Origin: Escherichia virus TH34
Direction: 5' to 3' (one strand)
Sequence record: MT446407.1
Length of the DNA: 64,000 nucleotides
The notes under the pieces were generated by a model. The model searched no databases, was not told the origin of the DNA, and saw only the letters and a list, made by a program, of their open reading frames with translations. Below are positions 16,523 to 42,035 of the stretch, one piece after another (the stretch's first letter is position 1; every line of letters begins with the position of its first letter). A program made the translations under genes and the position numbers.

Positions 16523-16531
16523 GGTGTTATC

Positions 16532-18255: not shown

Positions 18256-18332
18256 CACAATGGGCGCTCTGATAAAGGGCGCATTTAAAGGTTAATTAGA
18301 TGAAAGGGTTTACCCTTCAGGTGGATTAGAAA

Positions 18333-20366
18333 ATTTGTGGTATCGTATTAGCTGGGGGCAACATGACCTCCACAGACTTAGACGTATTCAACCAGCTTCT
18401 GTATGCTGGAGTCTTCCGTGGTCAGCACTCAACTGGTGTGTTCGGTCAGCGTAAAGGTGATGAAAAAGTATTTTCTTATAAAGAAGCACTTCCTTCCTAT
18501 GCCTTCATGCTCCAGACAGGGTACACGAATCTTACTAAGGGGCTTACGAACTATGTAGTTCCTCCATCGTGGATTGTTGGTCATAGCCGACATGCCACAC
18601 GTGGTGCGGTCAATGCTCGAAATGCTCACCCATTCTCTCATGGTGACATTACTCTGGTTCATAATGGTACACTGTTAGATCAGGAACTGTTACCAGATCA
18701 TAAGAATTTCGAAGTTGATAGCGAAAACATCTGTCATTCAATCAACACCATCGGTGCAGCAGAGACTATCCAGAAGTTGGATGGTGCGTTCACTTTAATC
18801 TGGCATGACGCCAAAGACAATACTCTGCATATCATTCGTAACGATGAACGTCCTTTCCATCTGGCCCGTTGTGGTCTAGATTGGTTTGGTGCTTCTGAAG
18901 AAGATATGTTGATGTGGATTCTTAATCGTTCCAAGTCACACAAGAACCGTATCAATGATCACTTTGAGTGTAAAGTGGGAACTGAATACATCTTTGATTT
19001 GTCTGGCAACCGTATGACTCTGACTCAAGAGGTGGAGCACAAGCTTCCGGTTTTTACGGTAACGAGTCGCTGGGGCGGCTATTACTCGAACTCTTCTCTG
19101 TATCAGAACCAACAGACAAACAAATCAAGCAGCAGCACAAGCGACATTTACGGAAACAAAGACGACAAGCCCGGCGTGACAAGCGGAGACATTCGTCGTC
19201 GTAAAGCGATTGAAGATCAGAATAAACTGGCTGCCGATCGTGGTCTTCCGTATCGTCGTGACGGTCGTGTGGATATCATTCCTCATGAGTTCCACGCTTA
19301 TAACAACACTGACCGTGGTAAGATGGTTGGTTATATTTATGATGATGCTGCTCAAGAGTATGTTGAGGGTGATGTTCATAATGTAGCCAAGAGTGAATAC
19401 TTGAAGGCTCTCGAAAACCCAAAGGTAGTGTATCGCGGGACAGTTGCTTGTATCTCCGAAGTGGACAGTATGATTCGCCTCGTACTCACTTCAGGGCTGT
19501 TTGTTGATGCTACCGATAAGGAGCCTCAAAGCACTACCGCTGATTTTGATGATGATATCCCTTTTGATTTAGAAGACTCCTTCATCACTAAGAATGGTGT
19601 GGAAGTCACCCGTAAGTTCTGGGAATCACATTCTCATGGTGATTGTGGCGGTTGTGACAAGCATATTGAATGGAAAGATGCTAAGAAAGCTGTGTTCGCT
19701 TACCAAGCATATTGGCATCCGGCCTGTTTCGAAGCATTGTCCAAACCGTCTGAAGAAGATGAAGACATTCCTTTGGGTGTCTGTGCTGTATGTGGCAATG
19801 TTAAAACTGATTTCGAGTTTGATAACGAAATGAGTAAACTTCGTGGTGAAGATATTTGTTATGTCTGTGCCAAAGAGATCAAAGACAAAGTGACTAACAC
19901 TACATTGTCTGAAGGTTACATTTGGACTAAAGCAGTTGACACAACCAACCCACGTCGCCCTGAAGTAGCAGTTCGTGTTGATCAGCGTATGCTTAGCCGG
20001 ATGATTGTAATGGTCAGCTCAGCTAAACGTTCTGGTGACATTGAATTGTCTGATGTTCCAAATTCTTATTTGGAAAAACGTGGTGGTGATACCTATGCCA
20101 TCTCTGTTTATGGTCCAAAGAATGCCCCAAAGGAGGTGCCCGCTGAGAAAGCGGAAACATTTCCAGAAAAGCAAACAACTCTCCGAAAAACAGTTGTCAG
20201 TTACGACGGACAACGAACAGCTGAGTTCACAAAAGCCCTCTGGACTTCAATTGGGTTTTGTGCGGTCTGTTATAAACAAATTCCGTGGCGTGATGCAGAA
20301 ATTTGCTCACTGAACAAAGAAAACAGGGTGATCTGTAATTCAGATTACTGTAAAGGTAAACATTAA
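18333..20366 (+). CDS. class-II (Ntn-type) glutamine amidotransferase domain fused to Cys-rich zinc-ribbon-like C-terminal region; probable AUU start
   Basis: VGHSRHATRG..NAHPF..LVHNGTLLD matches GlmS/PurF-type GATase motifs; CGIV nucleophile lies 9 codons upstream of first ATG (18363), right after ATT 18333 and behind AGGTGGA; C-terminus has 5+ CxxC pairs. Confidence 0.5.
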   Translation: MCGIVLAGGNMTSTDLDVFNQLLYAGVFRGQHSTGVFGQRKGDEKVFSYKEALPSYAFMLQTGYTNLTKGLTNYVVPPSWIVGHSRHATRGAVNARNAHPFSHGDITLVHNGTLLDQELLPDHKNFEVDSENICHSINTIGAAETIQKLDGAFTLIWHDAKDNTLHIIRNDERPFHLARCGLDWFGASEEDMLMWILNRSKSHKNRINDHFECKVGTEYIFDLSGNRMTLTQEVEHKLPVFTVTSRWGGYYSNSSLYQNQQTNKSSSSTSDIYGNKDDKPGVTSGDIRRRKAIEDQNKLAADRGLPYRRDGRVDIIPHEFHAYNNTDRGKMVGYIYDDAAQEYVEGDVHNVAKSEYLKALENPKVVYRGTVACISEVDSMIRLVLTSGLFVDATDKEPQSTTADFDDDIPFDLEDSFITKNGVEVTRKFWESHSHGDCGGCDKHIEWKDAKKAVFAYQAYWHPACFEALSKPSEEDEDIPLGVCAVCGNVKTDFEFDNEMSKLRGEDICYVCAKEIKDKVTNTTLSEGYIWTKAVDTTNPRRPEVAVRVDQRMLSRMIVMVSSAKRSGDIELSDVPNSYLEKRGGDTYAISVYGPKNAPKEVPAEKAETFPEKQTTLRKTVVSYDGQRTAEFTKALWTSIGFCAVCYKQIPWRDAEICSLNKENRVICNSDYCKGKH

Positions 20367-20377
20367 GAGGTGAAGTT

Positions 20378-20611
20378 ATGGAAGTTCGTAAATTGATGTT
20401 GGATAACGTTGTAACCACTCGACGTATCCCAATGACAAGCACAGGATGTGATAACCTTCGAGCTATTCAGAAATGGATGCAAGAAGGTATTGGGGGACTG
20501 GTTAACTCTCCAGTTGAAATCCCTTTCCCAACCGTTATCAATAACGTGTTGGCTGACTATGTGAAATTGAAGGGGATTAAAGTTGAGCCTCATGTCAAGC
20601 AAGGGAGCTAA
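20378..20611 (+). CDS. hypothetical protein (77 aa)
   Basis: ATG 20378 with AAGAGG upstream. Confidence 0.45.
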   Translation: MEVRKLMLDNVVTTRRIPMTSTGCDNLRAIQKWMQEGIGGLVNSPVEIPFPTVINNVLADYVKLKGIKVEPHVKQGS

Positions 20612-20813
20612 GCCTCACCTGACAATGCTGGAGTATCAACAACTCCGACTTCAACAACTGGTAACGGAGCAGCGAAAGCTGTATCCGTTTGCTTTTAACC
20701 TAATTGATTCACCAAGCGATGACCAAGAAGACGAGATGTTCTCCAAGTATTGGGAAATCGAAGTTAAAATTCAATCCTGTCGTAACGAAATTCTTAAACT
20801 AAAAGGTATCTAA
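20592..20813 (+). CDS. hypothetical protein (start uncertain)
   Basis: Track ORF starts TTG 20583; first ATG at 20592. Confidence 0.35.
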   Translation: MSSKGAKPHLTMLEYQQLRLQQLVTEQRKLYPFAFNLIDSPSDDQEDEMFSKYWEIEVKIQSCRNEILKLKGI

Positions 20814-20815
20814 AA

Positions 20816-22063
20816 ATGACTACTCGTATCCGTGTTCTTCCGTATGGCCCTTCTGATTCTGTTAACGCTCTGGTAACTGCCATTAGTGATACTATCCGTG
20901 ATGAACGTATCAACGCTAACGTAATGGGTCTTCTTTCTGAGAACAGTCGCTGGCGTTCTCGTGAGGGTGATGTGGTTGTGAACTACGGGAACCGCCGCTA
21001 TCCTGAATCCTTCTTTGGTTCTGCAACTGTTCTTAACCGTACCGCAGCCTTACACATGGCAGCGAACAAACGTCGTGCTTTCAGCGTGATGGACCAAGCA
21101 GGTGTTAAAACTGTTGAGTATACAGATGTTCAAGAGATTGCTCAGGAGTGGTCAAACTCTGGCAACATTGTGTATGAACGTCATGAACTGACTGGTCACT
21201 CTGGTTCGGGTATTATTGTTGTTGAGCCTCGTGATTCAGTTGGTCAAGCTGAACTGTACACCAAAGGTATTCAAGGCCCACGTCGTGAATGGCGTGTCCA
21301 TGTGTTCAAAGGTGCAATCACCTATGTTCAGAAGAAAATTCGTCGTAATGGTTATCGTGAAGACCCTAACTATCGTGAAGATGTTCGTAACCATCACACT
21401 GGTTGGGTTTACTCAAGCTCTTTTACGGATGTTCCGAACGATGCATCTCTGATCAACGCAGTGAAGGCCGTTGAATCGATGGGTCTGGATTTTGGTGCAG
21501 TTGATATCATTACTAAAGGTCGAGAAGCATGGGTACTGGAAGTTAATACAGCACCGGGCCTGACTGGTACAACTCTGGATACCTACCGTCACAACATCCT
21601 TGAGTTTGTTAAAGCTCAAAACCCTCTCTATACTCCTCAGTATAAAGTGGTTTACCAGACTCCTGTTGAAGCTCCAATTGAAGATGGAGATGGTGAATTG
21701 GTTGCTGACAGTGAAAGTGCTGATGATGAAAACTTCGCACTGGAAGGCCAAGTCGCACAGCCGGTTGATTCAGTGGATGTAGTTCCTGAAGAAATGCAAC
21801 TGGAAGGTCAGATGAATACTCAGACAATCCGTAATGCACCTACTGGTTATGTGTTGTCTCGTGGTTACTGGATTGCAGATATTCGTCATGTTCATAACAA
21901 CCTGCAACCTAATGCAATGTCTGCCAATGTCATTCTGTTCTGCGATGGTCGTAACTTCTACCGCAGTGGCTGGAACGTTCCGGTTCATCCGCAACAAGTC
22001 CACAACCCTCGTAAGTTAGAGTCTGTAACTGTTGAAGGTAGTGAAGTGGCAGTAACTCTGTAA
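20816..22063 (+). CDS. ATP-grasp fold ligase
   Basis: LDFGAVDIITKGREAWVLEVNTAPGL is a typical ATP-grasp C-terminal motif. Confidence 0.55.
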   Translation: MTTRIRVLPYGPSDSVNALVTAISDTIRDERINANVMGLLSENSRWRSREGDVVVNYGNRRYPESFFGSATVLNRTAALHMAANKRRAFSVMDQAGVKTVEYTDVQEIAQEWSNSGNIVYERHELTGHSGSGIIVVEPRDSVGQAELYTKGIQGPRREWRVHVFKGAITYVQKKIRRNGYREDPNYREDVRNHHTGWVYSSSFTDVPNDASLINAVKAVESMGLDFGAVDIITKGREAWVLEVNTAPGLTGTTLDTYRHNILEFVKAQNPLYTPQYKVVYQTPVEAPIEDGDGELVADSESADDENFALEGQVAQPVDSVDVVPEEMQLEGQMNTQTIRNAPTGYVLSRGYWIADIRHVHNNLQPNAMSANVILFCDGRNFYRSGWNVPVHPQQVHNPRKLESVTVEGSEVAVTL

Positions 22064-22083
22064 TTAAACAAAAGGAATTTGTA

Positions 22084-22326
22084 ATGTTGTCTATCGAAGA
22101 TTTGATCAGTCGTGGAATGACCGAACAAAAAGAACCTCTGATTGTTGGTTCTCGTAAAGCTATTAACCAACTCTGTGAAGAGTTTGGAATCACAAACAAG
22201 AGAATGATTGGTAATCAGTTCTCTGCAATTGTCACCTTCCTTAAACGAGGTGATAAATATTCAATGGAATGTGTTGAGCGTATCATCGCAATTGCACAAG
22301 AAGATAAGGGAGTAACAACTCTGTGA
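22084..22326 (+). CDS. hypothetical protein (80 aa)
   Basis: ATG 22084 with AAAAGGA upstream. Confidence 0.45.
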   Translation: MLSIEDLISRGMTEQKEPLIVGSRKAINQLCEEFGITNKRMIGNQFSAIVTFLKRGDKYSMECVERIIAIAQEDKGVTTL

Positions 22327-22508
22327 ATAAATACACAATCATGTTTCGTACAGTAAACTCAGAAGGTAATATTCAATCTCTAGATATTCAAGCAGATCGC
22401 TTTGAATCACTTGGAACAAGTGTTAACTTCTTCCGAGGAGTAGAGTTGGTAGGTACATTCCAATCTGACGTGTTGACTGGTGTGATCAAACACTTCGAAG
22501 TAGAATAA
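22323..22508 (+). CDS. hypothetical protein (start GTG 22323 or ATG 22341)
   Basis: GTGA overlap with upstream stop. Confidence 0.35.
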   Translation: MNKYTIMFRTVNSEGNIQSLDIQADRFESLGTSVNFFRGVELVGTFQSDVLTGVIKHFEVE

Positions 22509-22573
22509 TTTGCTTTAGCCTCTTCGGAAGAGGGGGCTAGTTCAAATTTAACTGAAACACAAAAGGTAATATA

Positions 22574-23005
22574 ATGTCTGATAAAGTATTAGTAGCAACT
22601 TACGGCAGCTTGAGAAAAGGTCAACACAACCACGCTATCAATGCTCGTGCCGGTGGTGTGTCTATTGGTGAGGGTTGGACAGTGAACAACTGTAACCTGT
22701 ATCAGTATTGCACAGCATACTTCCCAAGTGTGTCTCTGGAGCACGACAGCAATGGCAAGCCTGTTCGTGTGGAAGTATTTGAAACAACTCAAGCTGGTTT
22801 GGAAGGTCCGTATGACGGTCTGGAAGGTTATCGTGGTAAAGACAATCCATACACTTTCTACAATCGTACACTAATTCCAGTAGTGCTGGATAGTGGTGAA
22901 ACTGTGGAAGCATGGATTTATCATATCGACGAAGAACAAGATGTTCTGGTTGAATCTGGCGACTGGACAGCGTATCTGGCAGGTGATCAGGATGACAGTA
23001 ACTGA
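22574..23005 (+). CDS. AIG2/gamma-glutamyl cyclotransferase-like protein
   Basis: N-terminal VATYGSLRKGQHNH matches the YGSL motif of the GGCT/AIG2 fold. Confidence 0.45.
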   Translation: MSDKVLVATYGSLRKGQHNHAINARAGGVSIGEGWTVNNCNLYQYCTAYFPSVSLEHDSNGKPVRVEVFETTQAGLEGPYDGLEGYRGKDNPYTFYNRTLIPVVLDSGETVEAWIYHIDEEQDVLVESGDWTAYLAGDQDDSN

Positions 23006-25569: not shown

Positions 25570-27006
25570 ATGATTAAGATTCCATTGTCTGAATTAAACC
25601 TTCAAGAAGGAGAAGCCCTCAGTGTAGGGCTTGACCTGATTCGTAATTTGATCAGAGATAACGTAGTCCCTGATGGTATCTATCCTGTTATTGCGGGTGG
25701 TGCTATCCGTGATACGTTCTTCCAAAATCGAACTCCGAATGACGTTGATATCTTCCTAGTTCAAGGAGGATTTCGTTGGAACACTCGTCAGGAAAACAGC
25801 CCTGCTAACGTGGGTAATGCTGCACTGTTCCTTGACAACTTCTTGTCTTGGACAGAGAGTAAAGGGCTTCAAACTACATCTCGCCTAGTTCAGCCTGTTA
25901 GTGGGACAAATTACGCTGAAGCACTTTTCACTTTCCAAGAGATTTTGGAAGTGGAGATTGACGAAGTGAAGATTCAGATGATGATTAACCTCCCTCTGGA
26001 TATGGATACTCTGAGAGGTCGCTTCCCTATGATTTGTCAAGGGTTTATGACTCTCGATGATATGTATGTGTCGAACGAAGGTATGTTTGCAATGGCATAT
26101 ACTAATGATATCCCTGTGGTGACAAGTCGTGACATGAAGTATGTCCACAAAAAGTGGCCTGAAGCAACAGTTGCAGTTTACAGCAGTTCTACTGAGTATA
26201 TGCACCTTGCAATGGGAGCTTTTGGTGAACCAGAAGTTCATCTGATCAGTGATTTAGTTGGGCCTATGGCTGGTGTAAACTTGTATCAGAATCAACGTCG
26301 CCACTACACCTTGAAGATGATGGAAACTGTATTAAATATTCCTCAGGAAGCGGGTCGTAACTATCTGGATGAAGAGGTTAACCTACAGACAGATTGGTCT
26401 AGTGAATTAACCACTATTGGTGTTGAAGCAATTACGCAGCCTTGGACTCCGGGAACTGACAGACGTGACTCTTGGCAACAGACAAGATTCGCAGCACCTG
26501 CTACAGAGGCACCTCGTGATACTTTCACTGGTAGTTTTGGTAGTGCCCGTTCTTCTGGAATGGGTACTCGTACATGGCACGTCACTCATGATACAGGTGG
26601 AGTAACTGTTCGACCTGCTTCTTCTCCATCTATGGGTGATTTGCAGCGTTCCCGTCGTTCATGGGAAACAGTTAGCTCTGTTGTTCAGGGTCTACGTTCT
26701 AGTGATATAGAACGTGTAGAAGTTGGTGATTTGCCAACCCCTACAGAAGATCGGGTAGCAGCTATAGCGGCTCGTGAAGCTGCTCGTACTGGCTTTGCAT
26801 CTTTAGCTAACGACGCTCGACCTGTTGGTCGTCGTAATGGTCTGGCTCATTCTAACACTGCACTTGGTGCAGAACTCCGAGCAACAGCTCGTGAATTAGT
26901 TGGTGAACTTGATAGTAACTTAGCAGGTGTTACGCTGACTCGTGAAACAGCTCGTAACATGATTAACAATTTGACATCATCTGTACAAGGAAACAGAAAC
27001 TCATGA
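25570..27006 (+). CDS. CCA-adding-enzyme/poly(A)-polymerase-family nucleotidyltransferase with low-complexity C-terminal half
   Basis: VIAGGAIRD...NDVDIF matches the GGxVRD...DxD head-domain motif; C-terminal ~200 aa Ser/Thr/Arg/Gly-rich. Confidence 0.5.
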   Translation: MIKIPLSELNLQEGEALSVGLDLIRNLIRDNVVPDGIYPVIAGGAIRDTFFQNRTPNDVDIFLVQGGFRWNTRQENSPANVGNAALFLDNFLSWTESKGLQTTSRLVQPVSGTNYAEALFTFQEILEVEIDEVKIQMMINLPLDMDTLRGRFPMICQGFMTLDDMYVSNEGMFAMAYTNDIPVVTSRDMKYVHKKWPEATVAVYSSSTEYMHLAMGAFGEPEVHLISDLVGPMAGVNLYQNQRRHYTLKMMETVLNIPQEAGRNYLDEEVNLQTDWSSELTTIGVEAITQPWTPGTDRRDSWQQTRFAAPATEAPRDTFTGSFGSARSSGMGTRTWHVTHDTGGVTVRPASSPSMGDLQRSRRSWETVSSVVQGLRSSDIERVEVGDLPTPTEDRVAAIAAREAARTGFASLANDARPVGRRNGLAHSNTALGAELRATARELVGELDSNLAGVTLTRETARNMINNLTSSVQGNRNS

Positions 27007-27536
27007 GTCTTTTAGGTTCTCAAGAACTACACAACGTTATTGATAATGGCTTTTTAGATGCGGAGCATAAATATGTTAACGCTGCTAGCGTGGATATCCG
27101 TATTGGTGATACTATCCTTGTTGAAGAACAGGCTGACGGCATTGTTGACATTGATGCTAAAGAAAATCTCAAGTGGAAAGAAGTGAAAATCCCTGAAGAT
27201 GGTATTGTCATCACTCCGGGACAATTCTTCTTAGCTCACTCAATGGAAGAGTTTAACCTTCCAGATAACATCTCAAGTCTGTTTGTACTTCGCTCCTCAA
27301 TGGCTCGTTGTGGTTTGAACCACTTACATGCTGGTTGGGCTGATGCAGGGTTTAACAGCAGTAAGCTGACCTTTGAATTCCATAACGTTACCCACAACCA
27401 CAGCTTACGAGTTCGTGCTGGGATGCGTGTTGGTCAGATGGTTATGTTTGAACACTCTCACGCTGGTGATGATTCCTATGCAGTGAAGGGTCGTTACAAT
27501 GGCAGCAATGGGGTAGTTGCATCTAAAGGTGTATAA
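27003..27536 (+). CDS. dCTP deaminase / dUTPase-superfamily protein
   Basis: ASVDIRIGD and GWADAGF motifs typical of Dcd/Dut fold. Confidence 0.55.
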   Translation: MSLLGSQELHNVIDNGFLDAEHKYVNAASVDIRIGDTILVEEQADGIVDIDAKENLKWKEVKIPEDGIVITPGQFFLAHSMEEFNLPDNISSLFVLRSSMARCGLNHLHAGWADAGFNSSKLTFEFHNVTHNHSLRVRAGMRVGQMVMFEHSHAGDDSYAVKGRYNGSNGVVASKGV

Positions 27537-27541
27537 CCAAG

Positions 27542-27733
27542 ATGAAAGAAGAAAAAGCTACTTACTTAGCTATTGGTTTTGTAGTTGGGGCATTTGCTAT
27601 GGGAGTATTTATATCTAACGTTGGTCCAGATTCTAGCGTTAAGATTGAGACGAGAAGAGCCGCTTGTGAAATAAATCTCCCTCGTAATCAGGTCTGTGTA
27701 ATGCAGTTTGTCCCTAAATCGGTTGACAGATAA
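27542..27733 (+). CDS. small membrane-anchored protein (63 aa)
   Basis: N-terminal hydrophobic helix. Confidence 0.4.
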   Translation: MKEEKATYLAIGFVVGAFAMGVFISNVGPDSSVKIETRRAACEINLPRNQVCVMQFVPKSVDR

Positions 27734-27945
27734 TGGAGTTTGGAACAATGAAAAGACGTTGGGTAGTTCGTATTCACTGGAGCAGTGGTACAGAGTCAAT
27801 GGGTATTAGGAATACCCGTCAAGAAGCTCGCGCTCATAAGAAGTTCTTGTTAAGTTGTGAAAGCACAATTAATAAGATCACTATCCACAAAGCTCAAGAC
27901 TTTAAATCAGGTCGTTTCTATATCAGCGGAAAGGTACATTACTAA
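27733..27945 (+). CDS. small protein, TRQEAR paralog family (1 of 3)
   Basis: NTRQEARAHKK...KVHY; alternative ATG 27748. Confidence 0.45.
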   Translation: MEFGTMKRRWVVRIHWSSGTESMGIRNTRQEARAHKKFLLSCESTINKITIHKAQDFKSGRFYISGKVHY

Positions 27946-28160
27946 TGGATAAATTATGGGCAGTTCGTACTAAATGGGCTAACAAAGCTCTTGGTGGTGA
28001 TTGTATTCAATTATTCAACACAAGACAAGAGGCTCGTCTTGCTAAGAAAACTATAAAAGCTACAAAAGCTTTAGGAATCGCTGAAAAGGTGGAGATTCAT
28101 CGTTGGATTGAAAATATCCAGAACAGTGCTGGATTCATATCCAGCAAGGTTTATTACTAG
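27945..28160 (+). CDS. small protein, TRQEAR paralog family (2 of 3)
   Basis: NTRQEARLAKK...KVYY. Confidence 0.45.
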   Translation: MDKLWAVRTKWANKALGGDCIQLFNTRQEARLAKKTIKATKALGIAEKVEIHRWIENIQNSAGFISSKVYY

Positions 28161-28230
28161 TTGGTAGTAGATATGATAACTCTCAAATGTATATACAGTA
28201 TAAGAATATTGTATGAAACAGGAGAGAGTT

Positions 28231-28560
28231 ATGTTAGATTTGAGTAAAGTGGCCCCGCCATCTGAAGAGATTAGCAAAGCTAAAGTTATGCAGCAGTTCT
28301 ATCATCGTGATATGCTTGGTCGTTATATCAAGAATCGTGATGTTGTTGCATGGTCTATTGGAAATCAAGGTTATCTTCTCAAAGTGTTGCAAGTTACTGG
28401 CTCAACAGCCAAGCGAGTCAAAGTCTATGACCCTGAAATGGGGCGTTCTAAGTCTGTAGACCCACAGAATTGCATTGTTATTACCCAGCAGGTCATGGAC
28501 AACATTGCTCGTAACGTAGCCAATTCAACCAATTTAGAAGGAGAGACTCCTAATGCATAA
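28231..28560 (+). CDS. hypothetical protein (109 aa)
   Basis: ATG 28231 with AGGAGAG upstream; track start 28213 contains the RBS. Confidence 0.4.
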   Translation: MLDLSKVAPPSEEISKAKVMQQFYHRDMLGRYIKNRDVVAWSIGNQGYLLKVLQVTGSTAKRVKVYDPEMGRSKSVDPQNCIVITQQVMDNIARNVANSTNLEGETPNA

Positions 28561-29119
28561 TAATGTCTTCGACTTACCTGAACTAACACGAGTGGGTTCT
28601 AGTAACCCATTCTCTACAACTGACTCCTCTATCTCTCGTCTTGAGGGAATGAATAAACTGATCAGCGGTAACAGTCTAGAGCACATCCTATGCGGTGTGC
28701 AGGCTAACCTTGAGCTTCTACACATCAAAGCAAAGAATTACCACTGGAACGTCTCTGGAGCTGGTTTCCAAGGTGTTCATGGTATGTTCGATGAATTAGA
28801 AGACTATGCTCGTGAAACAGGAGACCGAGTAGCTGAGCGAATGCGTTATCACTGTATCAAAGTGGATGCAACAGCTAGTAGCTATCTTAGTTGTGCTTGG
28901 TTCAGAGAAGGTAGTGCTGATCTCGACATGGACGGTATGCTTTCCGACATGTGCATGACTCTGATGTGTATCATTGAAAAGATGGACGAGTTTGATTCAG
29001 ACTTGTGCACTTATCCAGTAGACCAGAGTATGCTTCAAGAAATTAATGAAGGTCTTGGCAAGTTCTGTTACTTCGTCAAGAGCAACATGTCCCACTCTAG
29101 TGGCGATGTGTCTTACTAA
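28553..29119 (+). CDS. Dps-like ferritin-fold protein
   Basis: HWNVSGAGFQGVH and DRVAERM fit both Dps signature patterns; RBS GAAGGAGAG. Confidence 0.55.
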   Translation: MHNNVFDLPELTRVGSSNPFSTTDSSISRLEGMNKLISGNSLEHILCGVQANLELLHIKAKNYHWNVSGAGFQGVHGMFDELEDYARETGDRVAERMRYHCIKVDATASSYLSCAWFREGSADLDMDGMLSDMCMTLMCIIEKMDEFDSDLCTYPVDQSMLQEINEGLGKFCYFVKSNMSHSSGDVSY

Positions 29120-29182
29120 TCAAACCTCCGCCCTGTCTCTTTGTTTAAGAGGTGGGGCGAACTTCTTTATAAGGATGTGAAT

Positions 29183-29362
29183 ATGTTTTCAGCAATCGTA
29201 TGGTCTGTGTGGGCAATTCTTGTTGGTGGTATTGTTTATCTGGCTCAAAAGCAAATGCTTAAAGAAAATCCAAATGATGCCAAACCTATTAAACATGGTA
29301 GCATTGCTCTGGTAGTTTTCTCTGTTGTTATTCCTTTCCTTCTCCACCTGTGGACTGCATAA
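29183..29362 (+). CDS. small membrane protein (59 aa)
   Basis: ATG 29183 with AAGGA upstream; two hydrophobic segments. Confidence 0.35.
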   Translation: MFSAIVWSVWAILVGGIVYLAQKQMLKENPNDAKPIKHGSIALVVFSVVIPFLLHLWTA

Positions 29363-29538
29363 TGAAATTAAACCTCCCTGAAGAATTACAAGCACATGCC
29401 ATTATCATTAGTGGCTGTGTGATGGGTCTTGGTCAGACAAAGAAGATTGCTCATGACTTAGCAAAAGGTCAGTATAAATCTTTTATTGTTGTTCCTGCTA
29501 CCCAGCGTCATATCAACCTGTTTATTAACAAGGAATAG
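29362..29538 (+). CDS. hypothetical protein (58 aa)
   Basis: TAATG overlap with upstream stop. Confidence 0.35.
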   Translation: MKLNLPEELQAHAIIISGCVMGLGQTKKIAHDLAKGQYKSFIVVPATQRHINLFINKE

Positions 29539-29539
29539 A

Positions 29540-29815
29540 ATGAGTAAAGTAATTAAGTTTTATAGTAATTCATGTGCTCCATGTGCAGCTATGGCTCCTG
29601 TGTTTAAGAAGGTTGTGGCTGACTACAGTGTAGAAGTTGAAGAAGTAAATATCTCTGAAGGTGATGGTCGAGAGCGAGCCATTGAATATGGTGTTCGCAG
29701 TATCCCAGCCTTTGTCGTCCCTGATAAGAATAGTGGCGCTCATTACAGCTTATCAGGTATTCAAACTGAATCTAATCTCCGTGCATTTTTAGACACGGCT
29801 CTGAAAGGTGTTTAA
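29540..29815 (+). CDS. thioredoxin/glutaredoxin-like protein
   Basis: ATG 29540 with AAGGA upstream; FYSNSCAPC active-site-like CxxC. Confidence 0.5.
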   Translation: MSKVIKFYSNSCAPCAAMAPVFKKVVADYSVEVEEVNISEGDGRERAIEYGVRSIPAFVVPDKNSGAHYSLSGIQTESNLRAFLDTALKGV

Positions 29816-29816
29816 T

Positions 29817-30032
29817 ATGGAAAAGAAACCTTGGACTACTTTTTGGGTAGTTAAGTGGTTTAATTTTGATAGCACAATCCCTAGCTTCTCCTCATACACA
29901 ACACGGAGAGAGGCTCGCCGCTTTAAGCGAGCTTTAAAAATTGCTAACACTGGCGCTTCTAAGATTACAATTCAGAAAGGGATTGAAACAGAAAGTGGAA
30001 GCAACATGATTTATAAAAAGATTCATTATTAA
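29817..30032 (+). CDS. small protein, TRQEAR paralog family (3 of 3)
   Basis: TTRREARRFKR...KIHY; ATG 29817 with AAAGGTG upstream. Confidence 0.45.
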   Translation: MEKKPWTTFWVVKWFNFDSTIPSFSSYTTRREARRFKRALKIANTGASKITIQKGIETESGSNMIYKKIHY

Positions 30033-30039
30033 GGAAGTG

Positions 30040-30510
30040 ATGTTATACGGTAATTTGGAATACAACCCTGAAACTGGAGACTTCTTTAGGAATAGCAAAA
30101 AGCTAGGAGGAAAGAGGAGCAAGTATGCAACCCTTCGGTTTCAAGGTAAAGTAAGAAAAGCACATGTGGTTGCTTGGTTTATTTATTATGGGGAGTGGCC
30201 TACTTCTCAAATAGACCATGAAGATGGTAATAAGAGGAACAACTCAATCTCTAATCTTCGATTAGTAGACACCTCTACTAACTGTCACAATCAGTTTGGT
30301 GCAAGATCTTCAAACATACAATCAGGTTTTCAAGGGGTTAAAGTTGTTAAGTACAAATCAGGCACTATTCGATATAGAGCAGTTATTTGTATTAATGGCA
30401 AAGATATACACCTAGGGATGTATGGAACTCCTGAAGAAGCACATCAAGTCTATATAGAACGGAAAAAGGAACTTTTACGTGAACGAACAACTAACAGCAA
30501 CATTGATTGA
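30040..30510 (+). CDS. HNH homing endonuclease
   Basis: HEDGNKRNNSISNLRL HNH motif; ATG 30040 with AAGGAAG upstream. Confidence 0.55.
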   Translation: MLYGNLEYNPETGDFFRNSKKLGGKRSKYATLRFQGKVRKAHVVAWFIYYGEWPTSQIDHEDGNKRNNSISNLRLVDTSTNCHNQFGARSSNIQSGFQGVKVVKYKSGTIRYRAVICINGKDIHLGMYGTPEEAHQVYIERKKELLRERTTNSNID

Positions 30511-31129
30511 ACATATGGGAAGCGATAAATCCGTTGTGAATGCGGCAAGGGTTTCTTTTGGTGTTGTACGAGAAGGTGATTTAAATGAACGTGATGAAAG
30601 ACTCATTAAATTCTTGGCAAGGGAAAAACACTGTACACCATTTCGTCATCCAACAATTAGCTTCCGATGCAAAGCGCCAATCGCAATTGCACGACAACTT
30701 GGAAAACATCAAGTGGGGTTCTCGTGGAACGAAATGTCCCGGCGGTATAAAGATGGAGCAGTTGAACTCTTCATCCCTAAAGAGATTTTTGAAAGACCTT
30801 CGGACCTCCATGCAGGTGCAGGGAATCTCCTCACCACAGGAGCACAAAACTCTGCACTAGTTCTGATTAACCGAGCATATGAAACAGCTCTTGAGTCGTA
30901 CGATGAATTGATTAAGTTCATTGCTCCAGAACAAGCTCGATTCGTATTACCTCAGGGTATGATCACTGAGTGGGTATGGACTGGTTCTCTATATGGTTGG
31001 TCAGAGTTGTGTCGTCAGCGACTGTCAGACCATGCTCAGTATGAGGTGCGTTTGTTCGCATCAACAATTGATGAAGAGCTTCGTAAAATATATCCAATCT
31101 CTTGGGATGCATTACGTGAAGCCCACTAA
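30479..31129 (+). CDS. thyX: flavin-dependent thymidylate synthase ThyX-like (variant signature)
   Basis: HCTPFRHPTISF...ARQLGKHQVGFSWNEMSRRY aligns to the ThyX core, but RHR reads KHQ; start GTG 30479 or ATG 30515. Confidence 0.55.
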   Translation: MNEQLTATLIEHMGSDKSVVNAARVSFGVVREGDLNERDERLIKFLAREKHCTPFRHPTISFRCKAPIAIARQLGKHQVGFSWNEMSRRYKDGAVELFIPKEIFERPSDLHAGAGNLLTTGAQNSALVLINRAYETALESYDELIKFIAPEQARFVLPQGMITEWVWTGSLYGWSELCRQRLSDHAQYEVRLFASTIDEELRKIYPISWDALREAH

Positions 31130-31301
31130 AGTATGTAGCTTCTGTCGAAAGCAGAAGCTTCTTATCAATTTCAAACTGAACGAGGAAACAGGTTTGGGTC
31201 ATGCTTTTTGTCATGATTGCAGGCACTACCTCGAACAGAAGCAATACATAAACTGGTTGCATTACTACAACCCTAACATCTATAAGCACAAGGTTATCTA
31301 A
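31107..31301 (+). CDS. small Cys-rich protein (start uncertain)
   Basis: CSFC...CHDC pairs; overlaps ThyX 3' end; ATG 31107 or GTG 31116. Confidence 0.3.
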   Translation: MHYVKPTKVCSFCRKQKLLINFKLNEETGLGHAFCHDCRHYLEQKQYINWLHYYNPNIYKHKVI

Positions 31302-31781
31302 ATGAAAGCTATTTTTGAAGGAAGGGAGTATGATGTTCCTGATTGGGTTAAATACATAGCCCGTGACTATGATAATCTGGTTTGGGCATATGGAGACGTA
31401 AGACCTGTGTTTAATGAAAACACTGGTAGTTGGTCTAACATGTCAAAATTACCAGGATTTATTCGGGCACTTGGCTCTTCTAGTCGTCCTGTAGGTTTCG
31501 CTGCTGACTCACTTGTTGAGGTTGGTGTTGAAAAGGAAATAGACAAGCCAGAAACAATTTGGGTTCTATCTTCAAGCACCCCAATTAAAGGAAGTCGTGG
31601 GATTTCCTTCTATGTTGAGCCTGTCGCTTACTTCAAAAACAAGCCGACCATTAATGCTCTGATGTTAAAGAACATTCCTTATTCACAAGTTGCTACTTTG
31701 TTAGATAACGGAACAGTGCTTGTTGAGAATAATGGGACAAATCAAATCTTTTATGATTTAGAAGAAAGGGTTTTAGAATGA
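31302..31781 (+). CDS. hypothetical protein (159 aa)
   Basis: TAAATG-coupled ORF. Confidence 0.5.
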   Translation: MKAIFEGREYDVPDWVKYIARDYDNLVWAYGDVRPVFNENTGSWSNMSKLPGFIRALGSSSRPVGFAADSLVEVGVEKEIDKPETIWVLSSSTPIKGSRGISFYVEPVAYFKNKPTINALMLKNIPYSQVATLLDNGTVLVENNGTNQIFYDLEERVLE

Positions 31782-31990
31782 AAGGTTTAGTGTTAGGAAA
31801 ACACCGTTTTACTTTCCGCATCTCCGACAGGAACCCATACCCTACCAAGATTGAACCTTACGAGATCATCTCTGAAGTGTTTATCTGGCCTTGGCAGAGT
31901 ATCTATGATGTTGCTCTTAAGTCCAAGAAGAAGCTGATACCTGTTGGTATTTGGGCTGATGTTGATTTAGTTAAAATCGAAAAGGTTTAA
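31778..31990 (+). CDS. hypothetical protein (70 aa)
   Basis: ATGA-coupled ORF. Confidence 0.45.
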   Translation: MKGLVLGKHRFTFRISDRNPYPTKIEPYEIISEVFIWPWQSIYDVALKSKKKLIPVGIWADVDLVKIEKV

Positions 31991-31991
31991 A

Positions 31992-32222
31992 ATGAAAGTT
32001 TGGATATTGACACGAGAGATTAACCAGTATGACCAAGATGGTGCATATTTTGAAGCAGTCTTTCTGAATAAACCAACAGCTGAGCAATTAGCAGAAGCTG
32101 GTGTATCTTCCTATTGTATTGACTATACGTTAAAACAAACCCACTCTGATGGCTCTTGTGGTGGTCGGTCTGAACACATGGAAGATGAATGGTGGCTTTT
32201 AGAAGAGATTGAGGTTAAATAA
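31992..32222 (+). CDS. hypothetical protein (76 aa)
   Basis: ATG 31992 with AAAGG upstream. Confidence 0.45.
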   Translation: MKVWILTREINQYDQDGAYFEAVFLNKPTAEQLAEAGVSSYCIDYTLKQTHSDGSCGGRSEHMEDEWWLLEEIEVK

Positions 32223-32543
32223 ATGATCAACGATAATACATTTAGGACTGGTAACGGAAACGAGATTAGTCCTGCTGAAGTGATTAAACGACACAGAACG
32301 CAGATGCTTATCCATTCCTATTTGTATTATTGGTTGGATGACCCAATCTGGTCTGATGACAAATGGCAACAAGTGGCTGATGACTTAACCACTTTACAAG
32401 AGATGTATCCTGAGCCTATTGAATTCTTTGATTCAGAGTTCAATGGATGGAATGGCTCTACTGGTATGCACCTCCCTCATGACGAGCGTATAGCTTGTAT
32501 GGCTACCGAAGTATATCGTTTACATAAGGACAAATCTATCTGA
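32223..32543 (+). CDS. hypothetical protein resembling NAD-dependent DNA ligase domain Ia (tentative)
   Basis: HSYLYYWLDDPIWSDDKWQQVADDLTTLQEMYPEP resembles the LigA N-terminal Y.YY..D.P..D..YD.L...L...YPE pattern. Confidence 0.3.
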   Translation: MINDNTFRTGNGNEISPAEVIKRHRTQMLIHSYLYYWLDDPIWSDDKWQQVADDLTTLQEMYPEPIEFFDSEFNGWNGSTGMHLPHDERIACMATEVYRLHKDKSI

Positions 32544-32725
32544 AATGTTTTAAATGTGAATCCACACTTCTCCATCTGGACTCGAAAGTAATACGAGAGC
32601 TTGCTAAAGGCTCTCCGACGAAAGGGAAGAATAAGAAATTTGTCGAAGTTAAGGTTACAGGTACTCATTGTTCAGAGTGTAAATCCTGTAGCTACACGTA
32701 TGAAGAACTTGGAGGTAGAAAATGA
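32540..32725 (+). CDS. zinc-ribbon-like ORF without canonical start (possible CUG start or pseudogene)
   Basis: 65-codon frame open from 32528 with KCFKC...HCSECKSC and no in-frame ATG/GTG/TTG; CTG 32540 overlaps upstream TGA, AAGGA 9 nt upstream. Confidence 0.2.
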   Translation: MKCFKCESTLLHLDSKVIRELAKGSPTKGKNKKFVEVKVTGTHCSECKSCSYTYEELGGRK

Positions 32726-33459
32726 ATCGCAGAGAAACTCGTAGAGAAGCACGGAAAGCAGCTCGTCGTGGTGAACAGGTGACTAATAAAGGTAAACGTG
32801 AGTATCAAGAAGTTGTTCTCGCTAAGCCTGTAGTTCCTCAGAATCAGTTTCAATCTGAACTGCTCAATGCTATCAAGACTAAACAAGTAGTCTTTACGGA
32901 TGCTCCTGCTGGATGTGGTAAGACTTATGTTATCACAACAACTGTTATTGATGCTCTGAAAAGTGGGAAGATTCAAAAGATCATCCTAAGCCGTCCTGCT
33001 GTTGGTATGGGTAATTCACTTGGGTTACTTCCCGGTGGGTTGCGTGAGAAGTTCGAACCATACCTGATGCCAATCGTTGATGTTATCACTCAGCGTTACG
33101 GTAAAGGCTTCTACGAGTGTCAAATTGGTAATGGTAACATTGAGTTCGTACCTCTGGAATACCTCCGTGGTCGTTCATTCAATGACGCTATTGTGATTGT
33201 TGATGAGTTCCAGAACACTACTCCTGATGAAGCATATTCAATCATGACCCGTCTTGGTGAAACCTCTCAGATGTTCTGTATGGGTGATACTAACCAGCAT
33301 GACATGCGTGGTGAGAGTGGTTTGGAATGGGCTACTGACTTCATTGATCGTCATGACTTATTTGAGTTTGCTGCTTTGGTTGACGGTGAGTCAGATGATA
33401 TTGTTCGTTCAGGTTTCTGTAAAGCTATTGTTAAAGCAATGGAATCTGAAAAATCCTAA
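32722..33459 (+). CDS. phoH: PhoH-like P-loop ATPase
   Basis: Walker A APAGCGKTYV and PhoH-like context; RBS GGAGG. Confidence 0.6.
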   Translation: MNRRETRREARKAARRGEQVTNKGKREYQEVVLAKPVVPQNQFQSELLNAIKTKQVVFTDAPAGCGKTYVITTTVIDALKSGKIQKIILSRPAVGMGNSLGLLPGGLREKFEPYLMPIVDVITQRYGKGFYECQIGNGNIEFVPLEYLRGRSFNDAIVIVDEFQNTTPDEAYSIMTRLGETSQMFCMGDTNQHDMRGESGLEWATDFIDRHDLFEFAALVDGESDDIVRSGFCKAIVKAMESEKS

Positions 33460-33462
33460 ACA

Positions 33463-33474
33463 TAATGTATACTC
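33463..33474 (+). promoter_or_regulatory. TAATGTATA element (candidate phage-specific promoter)
   Basis: Exact TAATGTATA 29 nt upstream of ATG 33504; same core as 39779-39790 and minus-strand 49307-49318. Confidence 0.3.
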
Positions 33475-33503
33475 CTTAGTGTACACTGATATATTAAGGA
33501 GTT

Positions 33504-33827
33504 ATGATGACTGATAAGGCAAAACGTGATTATGCACAAGAAAGACGTACCGCAATCAAACGTGGGGAGACAGGTGTTGGTAGCAAGAGCGGAGATGCTC
33601 AGCGCCACCGTGCACGTCGCATCGTTGAAAAGCGCGATGGAAAAGCTGCTGTCCGAGGTAAAGATGTTGGACATAAACGATCAATCAAGTCGGGAGGTTC
33701 TAATGCGTCAAGTAACTTACGTGTTGAATCAGTCTCTGGAAATCGCTCGAACGGCGGCAAAAGTGGAGATCGTGCTGGAAAATCAGCAGGAGGAGTCAAA
33801 TCGAGAAAAGGCGCTCTAAGTCAATGA
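33504..33827 (+). CDS. hypothetical basic Gly/Ser/Arg-rich protein (107 aa)
   Basis: ATG 33504 with AAGGAG upstream; stop ATGA-coupled to next gene. Confidence 0.45.
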   Translation: MMTDKAKRDYAQERRTAIKRGETGVGSKSGDAQRHRARRIVEKRDGKAAVRGKDVGHKRSIKSGGSNASSNLRVESVSGNRSNGGKSGDRAGKSAGGVKSRKGALSQ

Positions 33828-34318
33828 TTCCGATTTCCGACTACTTGTCATACGACCTGGATACTGTTTTATTGATTTTTACCGAATCTAGCTCTAAAGG
33901 TAAGAAATGGAATAAATCACATCCGGGAAAAGTGGCAGGGGCTGTTGATGAAAAAGGGTATATCAGAGTTTACTTTGAAGAGAGGAGATGGAAAGCTCAC
34001 AGACTTATAGCTTCTGTGCTCATACCTAACCCTGAAAATAAACCACAAATTAACCACATCAATGGTAACAAAAGTGATAATAGGTTAGAGAACCTAGAGT
34101 GGGTCACTGGTCATGAAAATATGCAACATGCTTTTTCAACAGGTCTTAATGTTGGTAAAGAGAGGGATGCTAATGGAATGACTAAAATCAACACATTGGA
34201 TGTGGAGAAGATCAAGAGTTTATATGTTAAAGGCTCTACCACTCATGGAACAAGAGCACTAGGTAAGATGTTTGGCGTAAGTCACACAGCTATCCGACAT
34301 GCTTTAAGCTCAAGTTAA
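33824..34318 (+). CDS. HNH homing endonuclease
   Basis: HINGNKSDNRLENLEWVT HNH motif. Confidence 0.55.
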   Translation: MIPISDYLSYDLDTVLLIFTESSSKGKKWNKSHPGKVAGAVDEKGYIRVYFEERRWKAHRLIASVLIPNPENKPQINHINGNKSDNRLENLEWVTGHENMQHAFSTGLNVGKERDANGMTKINTLDVEKIKSLYVKGSTTHGTRALGKMFGVSHTAIRHALSSS

Positions 34319-34323
34319 TATAA

Positions 34324-34354
34324 GGCTACCCATTTCGGGTGGCCTTTTCTTTTA
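34324..34354 (+). terminator. rho-independent terminator
   Basis: Stem GGCTACCC / GGGTGGCC then TTTTCTTTT. Confidence 0.5.
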
Positions 34355-34374
34355 TATAATCTAAGGTAATAAAT

Positions 34375-34626
34375 ATGTCTAAAGTAACTTATATCACTGT
34401 AACTGATTTCTTTCCTTTTCTGGATGTAACTGAAAGCTACACCTTCCCCGTGAGCAATGTTACAAGCTCTGTTGAGATGATTCAATTTAACCCAACAACA
34501 GCTCGTACTAACGTGGCTCTTCGTGGTCCTGATGGCAAGTTCATCTCCTTCCGCGATAAGGCTGTTCCTAAGCGTATTGCTAAGTCTATTGAAAATCTGA
34601 AACCTTTCCCTAACTTTGGTGCATAA
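34375..34626 (+). CDS. small protein, tandem paralog A (TARTNV...NLKPFP)
   Basis: Shares TARTNVxxRGxDGKFxSxRD...NLKPFP with next ORF. Confidence 0.5.
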   Translation: MSKVTYITVTDFFPFLDVTESYTFPVSNVTSSVEMIQFNPTTARTNVALRGPDGKFISFRDKAVPKRIAKSIENLKPFPNFGA

Positions 34627-34627
34627 T

Positions 34628-34885
34628 ATGAAGATTAGCTTAATCCAAATTCGTGATCATCTCTTTAACGGTGACGCTCAGACTCATGATTACAAGGTTA
34701 ATCAAGGACAACACCCTACCAATCATCTTATTGGAGGGATTTCTCTATTACCTAATAAAACAGCACGGACGAATGTAATGATTCGTGGTAAGGATGGTAA
34801 ATTCCTTTCTTATCGTGATCTTGAAATCTGTGCTGATGTTCGTACAGCTATGAACAATCTGAAACCTTTCCCGACAGTGGAGTAA
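34628..34885 (+). CDS. small protein, tandem paralog B (TARTNV...NLKPFP)
   Basis: ATG 34628 follows upstream TAA. Confidence 0.5.
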   Translation: MKISLIQIRDHLFNGDAQTHDYKVNQGQHPTNHLIGGISLLPNKTARTNVMIRGKDGKFLSYRDLEICADVRTAMNNLKPFPTVE

Positions 34886-34888
34886 GTT

Positions 34889-35242
34889 ATGCCAGTACCT
34901 CAACGCCTAGAACGTCACTGCGTTCTCAAATGGGACAATATTCATGACAACCTCTCCATTCAAGAGTTTCGTCAGTTTATTGAATTAACAGCGAAGATTA
35001 ACCGAAACCAACCAGCTCGAAACTTTGTAGTGGTTAGTGATAAGTATCCTGAGTTGTATGAGCAGGTGTGGGGTATGAAACTTGCACAGGTTCAGAGAAA
35101 CAGCAATGAACGAAGAGAAACTCGTAGACAGCGAGCAGAAGATATTCCAGCAGTCTTTTATGTGGATGAATTAACGGAATCCTATGAACAGTTAGATATT
35201 GTCGAGGATAACCAAGCGTTCACTGATTTAATATACCAATAA
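34889..35242 (+). CDS. hypothetical protein (117 aa)
   Basis: ATG 34889 with GGAG upstream. Confidence 0.5.
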   Translation: MPVPQRLERHCVLKWDNIHDNLSIQEFRQFIELTAKINRNQPARNFVVVSDKYPELYEQVWGMKLAQVQRNSNERRETRRQRAEDIPAVFYVDELTESYEQLDIVEDNQAFTDLIYQ

Positions 35243-41384: not shown

Positions 41385-42035
41385 ATGAAGAAGAAGACAA
41401 CACCCACACGCTATCGTATTCATGGCATTCCTATTAAATATTATCCAACCTTCGATGAATTCTATCGAGAGAACTGGAAAGTTGTGCATCGCTATTTTAT
41501 GTATGACATTAAAGATTATCACGAAGCAGAGGATGTTGCTCAGGAAGTATTACTGAACGCTTGGCGTTTTGTGTTTGCAAAGCAAGAAGAACTTCTGCTC
41601 GCTGATGAAAAAGATATTGAACACATGACTTATCGTGTTAAGAATATCATCTGGTCTATTCGTTCTAACCGTCAGACAGTTGGAGATCGACGTATCTACT
41701 CTATTCCAGAGGCTGATATGTTTAGACCTCCTGAGATGAACTCATGGGAAAGTCCTTTAGAGATTGCGATGGATAAGCATGACTCTACTGGAGACCCCTT
41801 CTTGGAATCTAGAATCTTTTTCTTCTTCCAAGACTTAAGTGATATTATGGATACCAAGAAAATGGCAAGCATGTTCTCTATGCTCTTCCTTGGAATACCT
41901 CACGATCACATCCAGCAAGAGCTGGGAATTTCACACGGAACTTTCTATCGCCGATATGCAGAGAATCGTGATCTGTACGAAGCTGTAGTAGAGAAGCACT
42001 TTGATAAAGAAGATCTTCAAGGGATGATTCAATAA
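41385..42035 (+). CDS. phage sigma factor (ECF/sigma70 family)
   Basis: Region-2-like [16 protein letters not shown] and region-4-like [23 protein letters not shown]. Confidence 0.55.

Follow-up and report, generated by a model that had tools for sequence, protein, structure and literature searches.

A K-H-Q variant of the ThyX signature motif marks a large, mostly viral lineage of putative flavin-dependent thymidylate synthases

We analyzed an open reading frame (ORF) in a 64,000-nucleotide stretch of Escherichia virus TH34 (MT446407.1), the whole of which we call the window, and found that it encodes a full-length member of the flavin-dependent thymidylate synthase (ThyX) family, as confirmed by sequence and by predicted fold. 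The product carries K-H-Q at the place of the RHR motif, and comparison with its relatives indicates that the feature is conserved in, and typical of, a large ThyX lineage dominated by viruses and is not an anomaly of the TH34 phage. We consider it probable (roughly 85%) that the protein is a functional flavin-dependent thymidylate synthase within this mostly viral K-H-Q-X8-S-R-R-Y lineage. The gene is located as follows:

30479–31129, + strand: thyX, predicted flavin-dependent thymidylate synthase, 216 aa, GTG start (ORF, Pfam Thy1, PHROG 85, TIGR02170, AF2 model)

Pfam PF02511 (Thy1) matched residues 8–206 of the product (E = 4e-43, 147.9 bits against a cutoff of 24.8), covering profile positions 1–190 of 191. 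It was the sole family matched in the Pfam search at E ≤ 1, which returned no Thymidylat_synt (ThyA) domain. The ORF also matched PHROG 85 ("thymidylate synthase"; 1e-61) and scored 121.1 bits with the NCBIfam equivalog TIGR02170 ("thyX"), for which the cutoff is 87.9. An AlphaFold2 model of the monomer, built from 44 homologs, had a mean pLDDT of 89.1, and its best 50 Foldseek matches in the PDB were all ThyX, with TM scores of 0.82–0.84 to Thermotoga maritima entries (TM0449; 1o24/1kq4) and of 0.72–0.73 to two Thermus thermophilus chains. Canonical ThyX is a homotetramer, each of whose active sites draws on three subunits. An initial reading of the DNA from sequence only had aligned the ORF by eye to the ThyX core, including the signature serine; the Pfam match, the model, and the profile alignments described below all bear this out.

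The compact product (216 aa) and the T. maritima enzyme (220 aa) aligned over their full lengths. Canonical ThyX proteins (T. maritima TM0449, T. thermophilus Thy1, those of Mycobacterium tuberculosis and Helicobacter pylori, and A674R of PBCV-1) show full-length homology to it at 30%–33% identity and, judging from the model, the same fold (TM 0.82). They also share its length class, the dUMP ligands, the lid tyrosine, His53 (T. maritima numbering, denoted Tm), and the signature serine in register. PolB of polyoxin biosynthesis, a UMP C5-methylase, is a precedent for an altered substrate on the ThyX fold; its structure (PDB 4p5a; E = 4e-17, 65.4 bits) scored below those of dUMP-specific ThyX (104.2 bits for 6j61 and 92.2 bits for 1kq4), and we rejected a PolB-like function on this ground. 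The ThyA-family dUMP hydroxymethyltransferases of phages SPO1, ViI, and M6, which belong to the synthesis of hypermodified thymidine, also act on C5 of dUMP but have an unrelated fold and family. A ThyA-like hydroxymethylase was rejected because Thy1 was the only Pfam family matched.

The motif falls within the peptide ARQLGKHQVGFSWNEMSRRY (residues 71–90), in two segments:

30704–30712, + strand: K76-H77-Q78, the counterpart of RHR in the ThyX motif (HMMER alignment to 1kq4 and 6j61)
30737–30748, + strand: S87-R88-R89-Y90, comprising the signature serine, a subfamily-specific extra arginine, the dUMP-binding arginine, and the lid tyrosine (aligned to Tm S88-G89-R90-Y91)

The same by-eye alignment had read K-H-Q in place of RHR and had cautioned that the register could be shifted. 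HMMER alignment to the T. maritima (1kq4) and T. thermophilus (6j61) enzymes placed K76-H77-Q78 on R78-H79-R80 with posteriors of 9 or "*", which ruled out a shift at the motif, and placed S87 on the signature Ser88, also with high posterior. The substitution is therefore real, and the protein sequence contains no RHR tripeptide at any other place. Owing to a one-residue insertion (Gly80, found in 96% of the subfamily), the spacing to the serine is X8 and not X7, so that the ORF reads K-H-Q-X8-S-R-R-Y, compared with R-H-R-X7-S-x-R-Y in canonical enzymes. The residue that follows the serine is arginine in the ORF and glycine in T. maritima. The textbook signature R-H-R-X7-S is thus not matched by the ORF, which retains only its histidine and serine, and the same holds across the whole lineage; it is the textbook pattern that fails here, and not the homology.

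Of the 120 database clusters nearest to the ORF product, which range from 98% down to 52% identity and include Chaseviridae-like phages and Salmonella phage SeKF_80 (roughly 90 kb), 119 read KHQ...SRRY. Searching 1.84 billion representatives clustered at 50% identity, we obtained 367 matches at E ≤ 1e-30. The 150th of these still outscored the best canonical solved structure, and the top solved structure overall was itself a canonical RHR enzyme with only 104 bits (the T. thermophilus entry 6j61). The same ThyX type was seen in Aeromonas, Vibrio, Rheinheimera, and Roseobacter phages and in a giant-virus-like neighborhood. At 50% identity the lineage divides into some 300 clusters or more, with members in both phages and giant-virus-like contigs.

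We then placed 245 subfamily proteins, the most distant at about 40% identity, on one profile (hmmalign columns) together with 78 bacterial ThyX proteins of the canonical type, the latter drawn from GTDB genomes of Thermotogota, Elusimicrobiota, Thermus, spirochaetes, Marinimicrobia, cyanobacteria, and actinobacteria. RHR was present in 78 out of 78 canonical proteins. In the subfamily, by comparison, the first motif position was K in 221 and R in 23, the second was H in 229 and S in 15, and the third was Q in 189, K in 18, T in 18, and H in six, with R in merely two of 245. Position 89 (Tm), directly after the signature serine, was R in 241 of the 245 and variable in the canonical set (A in 22, R in 17, F in 17, and G in 16 of 78). 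Tm E58 was glutamate in all 78 canonical proteins and in none of the 245; Tm R143, beside E144, was arginine in all 78 and proline in 230 of the 245. Tm N163 was usually replaced by S and Tm R165 by Y (144), L (28), or A (26), the latter position being H in 20 of the 78 canonical proteins. Further replacements in the lineage were W76 to L and H65 to R. The ORF itself has Q for R80, S for N163, and Y for R165.

Among its nearest relatives, the ThyX proteins of Gordonclarkvirinae/Kuravirus phages (Bas88, ECBP2, IME267, and the phiEco32 group) have 92%–97% protein identity to the ORF product and share its genomic position and motif. Two orthologs annotated as thymidylate synthase, in Bas88 and HC-25922, are 97% identical to it. 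Mycobacteriophage ThyX proteins (L5 gp48 type; Twister gp45) are likewise phage-encoded within a replication and nucleotide-metabolism module. Twister gp45, with about 27% identity to the ORF product, has the canonical R-H-R...S-Q-R-Y, which indicates that K-H-Q is a trait of the lineage and not the general phage form. As a phage gene for nucleotide metabolism, the ORF is unremarkable, and dozens of nearly identical genomes already carry the annotation thymidylate synthase for it. What is worth noting is that a motif described as strictly conserved is missing from a very large group of viral enzymes that keep the dUMP site whole in other respects. Pattern filters such as RHRX7S will miss enzymes of this type, and claims that the motif is essential, as well as inhibitor design aimed at it, hold for the canonical branch only.

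Three further active-site residues anchor the comparison with canonical enzymes:

30629–30631, + strand: H51 (Tm His53), conserved in 242/245 subfamily and 78/78 canonical proteins
30938–30940, + strand: R154 (Tm Arg147, a ligand of the dUMP phosphate), present in all subfamily (245/245) and canonical (78/78) proteins
31019–31021, + strand: R181 (Tm Arg174, a ligand of uracil N3/O4), likewise present in all proteins of both sets (245/245 and 78/78)

Kept in both sets were (Tm numbering) H53, R74, Q75, N85, E86, S88, R90, Y91, E144, R147, R174, Q180, and E182. The dUMP-binding and catalytic residues R74, Q75, E86, S88, R90, Y91, R147, and R174 correspond to R72, Q73, E85, S87, R89, Y90, R154, and R181 of the ORF, each at least 91% conserved (n = 245). 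On the folate/NADPH side the ORF has E151 (Tm E144; glutamate in 245/245) and H51, the residue that we take, from the T. maritima folate complex, to stack on folate. In the M. tuberculosis and H. pylori structures, dUMP is bound by the first arginine of RHR, Arg199 (Tm R174), Arg87, Ser105, and Arg107, and Tyr108 forms a lid above C5 and N5 (PMC6514825).

The positions that are systematically replaced in the subfamily are E58, R78, R80, R143, N163, and R165 (Tm). They cluster at the flavin-phosphate/AMP side and at the phosphate clamp and leave the uracil-reading residues unchanged. According to a review of ThyX, the RHR motif, together with M. tuberculosis Ser71 and Arg190 (Tm T55 and R165), hydrogen bonds the FAD phosphates and ribityl chain, and of the motif the first arginine alone also contacts the isoalloxazine ring and dUMP (PMC6514825); a second source counts both Tm R78 and Tm R80 as hydrogen-bond donors to dUMP (PMC3498832). 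The earlier suggestion that the RHR arginines contact the nucleotide therefore holds for the first arginine, and for both if the second source is followed, but it misses the main role of the motif at the flavin. Of the FAD phosphate and ribityl ligand positions in the ORF, those occupied by K, H, and T53 (Tm T55) are kept or conservatively replaced, and R80 and R165 are the ones changed, to Q and Y. Since the replaced sites are mainly FAD phosphate ligands, the substitutions point to altered cofactor and phosphate binding and not to altered pyrimidine recognition.

We infer that the lineage would have rebuilt the site for the pyrophosphate and AMP half of FAD together with part of the dUMP phosphate clamp, losing E58, R80, and R143, which are universal in the canonical set, and usually N163 and R165 as well. 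The lysine at the first motif position would retain the positive charge. An arginine would have become fixed directly after the signature serine, where a side chain could reach the dUMP phosphate pocket, as the Gln89 side chain of PBCV-1 ThyX can (PMC3498832). It is plausible that the arginine at position 89 replaces the one lost. We rejected the idea that R80 is lost and R89 gained in strict two-way covariation, as 17 of the 78 RHR enzymes also carry R89; the covariation runs in one direction and is no proof of compensation. A passage in PMC2386288, citing Ulmer 2008, gives the motif residues of M. tuberculosis ThyX as necessary for tritium-release activity, so that the predicted activity of the ORF product hinges on a compensation that is itself conjectural. 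The changes at the flavin-phosphate ligands and the arginine fixed after the signature serine make this a concrete hypothesis.

A refinement of the main reading, and not exclusive of it, is that the lineage performs the same reaction with different cofactor handling: FMN in place of FAD, a loosely held and exchangeable FAD, or another reductant or folate form. The substitutions do strike named FAD phosphate and ribityl ligands, namely the third arginine of RHR and the equivalent of M. tuberculosis Arg190/Tm R165. The loss of E58 and the change of N163 to S fit as well, as does the proline that prevails at R143; the neighboring E144 carries the mutation in 4gtc, 4gtd, and 4gte, the T. maritima folate complexes. 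However, Lys76 and His77 would retain two of the three motif contacts, T53 is kept, and R165 varies among canonical enzymes too, with H in a quarter of that set (20/78). We regard such a shift as rather unlikely.

Strong purifying selection acts on thyX, with a dN/dS of 0.087 against the Bas88 ortholog (dS 0.37). Among 44 homologs (down to 51% identity) there were 63 invariant columns, including K76, H77, Q78, S87, R88, R89, and Y90. Several relatives carry an intein exactly inside the motif, where KHQxGF is followed by the intein (C...VVHN) and then by SWNE, and inteins typically insert where function is critical. The selection, the invariance of the motif, and the intein site together argue against a dead homolog, and conservation of this kind suggests that K-H-Q-type ThyX proteins are active.

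The source genome is that of a phiEco32/Kuravirus-like Escherichia coli podophage (Gordonclarkvirinae). An 8-kb query (27000–35000) had 95% identity to StefiGeyer_Bas88 and 94% to ECBP2, with the ortholog annotated "thymidylate synthase" in both. The neighbors relevant to thyX are the following:

27003–27536, + strand: dCTP deaminase, the upstream step supplying dU nucleotides (TIGR02274 equivalog, 107.2 bits, cutoff 92.8; PHROG 1663, E = 8e-59)
30037–30510, + strand: HNH homing endonuclease, adjoining thyX upstream and overlapping its first 32 nt (PHROG 99, E = 1e-43)
42035–42631, + strand: deoxynucleoside monophosphate (dNMP) kinase, the downstream step from dTMP to dTDP (PHROG 139, E = 3e-41; position matching Bas88_0025, a dNMP kinase; no match in Pfam)

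Around thyX, genes for replication and nucleotide metabolism form a module that includes PhoH, a primase/helicase, a DNA polymerase, a protein with a thioredoxin domain, and a small ORF resembling DNA ligase. The proposed reaction is dUMP + CH2-H4folate + NADPH to dTMP + H4folate, via FAD. ThyX would act between the phage dCTP deaminase (dCTP to dUTP, with host Dut then yielding dUMP) and the phage dNMP kinase, and the simple reading is that dCTP would pass via dUMP and ThyX to dTTP. ThyX regenerates H4folate, so no DHFR is required. In the annotation of the near-identical Bas88 genome, neither a ThyA-like gene nor a DHFR is listed, nor is any gene known from hypermodification. The window has a GC content of 42.4%, and the pathway would tilt the nucleotide pool of a 51% GC host toward dTTP for a 42% GC genome, without DHFR.

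The sequence-only reading had left three options for the ORF: a diverged but active ThyX, an inactive homolog, or an enzyme with altered pyrimidine chemistry. Conservation and dN/dS give good support to the first as the probable one, and the other two found no support. More broadly, the flavin-phosphate site might have been rebuilt with a functional consequence, either another flavin or reductant regime or, more radically, the release of a C5-modified dUMP (e.g., 5-hydroxymethyl-dUMP) that underlies resistance to restriction; this we consider very unlikely.

The specific form of altered chemistry is that the lineage adds the methylene at C5 of dUMP without the final hydride transfer, yielding 5-hydroxymethyl-dUMP or another C5 adduct that feeds a DNA modification behind the restriction resistance of Gordonclarkvirinae. 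The BASEL study described these phages as remarkably resistant to restriction–modification with no known modification pathway and pointed to the dCTP deaminase/nucleotidyltransferase locus (PMC11990801). The exocyclic methylene intermediate of the ThyX mechanism could in principle be intercepted by a nucleophile (PMC8989533). The loss of E58, R80, and R143, invariant in canonical enzymes, is compatible with a change of product, and a search of the literature and of solved structures turned up no K-H-Q-type ThyX that had been studied biochemically or structurally. Nevertheless, the lid tyrosine Y90, which shields C5 and N5 from solvent, and all uracil ligands are invariant, and the residues replaced are flavin-phosphate/AMP ligands and not those around C5. 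The enzyme type is spread over many unrelated phage groups (Chaseviridae and the Aeromonas, Vibrio, Rheinheimera, and Roseobacter phages) and giant-virus-like contigs. Known thymidine hypermodifications begin with ThyA-family hydroxymethylases and not with ThyX (PMC8989533), and the kinase, transferase, and dTTP-exclusion genes of those pathways are not annotated in Bas88.

The window itself also speaks against an altered product. Many type II sites are strongly avoided in it, with three CCWGG sites versus 99.5 expected, 128 GATC sites versus 294 expected, and zero to one site each for PstI, SacI, NcoI, BamHI, and KpnI versus 10–20 expected. This avoidance is characteristic of DNA that is exposed to restriction, and not of a blanket base replacement. 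The termini of phiEco32 were mapped via restriction profiling (PMC9965538). Taken with the invariant uracil ligands, these data make a C5-adduct product highly improbable.

The restriction resistance reported for Gordonclarkvirinae (PMC11990801) leaves room for novel nucleotide chemistry and, as such, counts against the main reading. The same study speculated that these phages carry dU in place of dT in their DNA (PMC11990801). A conserved ThyX that is under selection and has an intact dUMP site argues against this suggestion, and we judge dU-DNA unlikely.

A catalytically dead ThyX homolog, kept for nucleotide or flavin binding, for regulation, or for a structural role in a replication complex, seems scarcely credible: although two of the three motif residues given as required in that passage on M. 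tuberculosis ThyX (PMC2386288) are changed here, the dUMP ligands, lid tyrosine, H53, E144, Q180, and E182 are kept across hundreds of 50%-identity clusters, the dN/dS is low, the score exceeds the TIGR02170 equivalog cutoff, and the dCTP deaminase and dNMP kinase complete a coherent pathway.

Altered chemistry had also been thought relevant to an amide-ligation cluster in the same genome. This cluster (15671–23005) encodes PF14395, PF12224, GATase, RimK-like, and GGACT proteins. Chaseviridae carry the same ThyX type beside a primase and polymerase without the amide-ligase cluster, and the amidoligase of the cluster also occurs in 119 Pseudomonas phage records. These separate distributions lend no support to a functional link, and we ruled out a coupling of the two on this basis.

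Finally, we noted a difference at the start of the gene. In a blastn comparison with Bas88, positions 30038–30479 stand in place of 10 bp of intergenic DNA, and homology returns at 30480. The HNH endonuclease gene (about 440 bp) is thus inserted at the thyX start codon in TH34, where the start is GTG and that of Bas88 is ATG.

We compared the counts of selected restriction and methylation sites across the whole window (1–64000) with those expected under a second-order Markov model and found these sites to be strongly under-represented. The deficit was seen for CCWGG (three observed vs. 99.5 expected) and GATC (128 vs. 294), and for the sites of PstI (one vs. 19.8), SacI (zero vs. 19.7), KpnI (one vs. 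12.8), NcoI (zero vs. 12.3), BamHI (zero vs. 9.8), EcoRI (10 vs. 24.5), and HindIII (23 vs. 48.5). Over the same 64,000 nt, sites of EcoRV, HpaI, XbaI, NdeI, SspI, DraI, EcoKI, and EcoP1 showed no avoidance, with counts in line with expectation.

Two regions upstream of the flavin-dependent thymidylate synthase gene (thyX) encode the following features:

15671–23005, +, amide-ligation cluster named in the sequence-only reading
within 15671–23005, +, phiEco32-type COOH-NH2 ligase (PF14395)
within 15671–23005, +, Amidoligase_2 (PF12224)
within 15671–23005, +, class-II glutamine amidotransferase protein, 667 aa
within 15671–23005, +, RimK-like ATP-grasp protein (weak match)
within 15671–23005, +, gamma-glutamyl cyclotransferase
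25570–27006, +, "nucleotidyltransferase," 478 aa (PHROG 12715, E = 4e-155)

Homologues of the amidoligase were found in 286 phage records, 119 of which are Pseudomonas phages. The cluster is preceded by genes for two large conserved proteins (13547–14764 and 14773–15723), neither of which has a Pfam match. The nucleotidyltransferase gene, flanked by those for a polymerase exonuclease subunit and dCTP deaminase, was named by the authors of the BASEL phage study as a possible DNA-modification factor (PMC11990801). Its product had zero matches in Pfam or NCBIfam; the N-terminal GG...RD...DxD resembles that of Pol-beta-type and CCA-adding nucleotidyltransferases, and the C-terminal half is Ser/Arg-rich and of low complexity.

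The surroundings of thyX (30479–31129, +) include four further genes:

29486–29815, +, thioredoxin-domain protein (PHROG 22)
30037–30510, +, HNH homing endonuclease (PHROG 99, E = 1e-43)
31116–31301, +, Cys-rich ORF, 61 aa, CxxC...CxxC (PHROG 15951, unknown function, E = 5e-24)
33824–34318, second HNH gene

The Cys-rich ORF adjoins thyX downstream, overlapping its last 14 nt, and weakly matches the "Lar-like restriction alleviation protein" family (E = 9e-4); it could be relevant to the restriction resistance of Gordonclarkvirinae. The thioredoxin-domain gene lies ∼0.7 kb upstream of thyX within the same operon-like run, and ribonucleotide reductase is absent from the annotation of the related phage Bas88. 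Compared with Bas88, the first HNH gene is a precise insertion between thyX and the gene upstream (junction 30038–30479), replacing 10 bp of intergenic spacer. The two phages are 98.3% identical on the upstream side of the insertion and 93.6% identical on the downstream side. At its 3′ end, the HNH gene runs into thyX by 32 nt; thyX starts with GTG here and with ATG in Bas88.

Among ThyX homologues, four of the K-H-Q type (P0121, P0133, P0247, and P0258) carry inteins within the ThyX motif, sited after the G-F/T that follows KHQ and before S/C-W-N-E; the junctions (slashes) in P0121 read ...ARQLGKHQSGF/CLTGDTQV...GFVVHN/SWNERSMRY. In another homologue (P0143; 465 aa), a K-H-T-type ThyX has "IETNPGP" 2A-like self-cleaving peptide motifs on both flanks, and this arrangement suggests part of a polyprotein of a eukaryote or a eukaryotic virus. 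Finally, an R-H-T-type ThyX (P0141/L084) is located on a 559-kb contig; the NCBI assembly to which this contig belongs is highly fragmented and has the size of a eukaryotic genome. The gene-dense neighborhood of this ThyX, including VWA, AAA, and glycosyltransferase genes, looks like giant-virus DNA.
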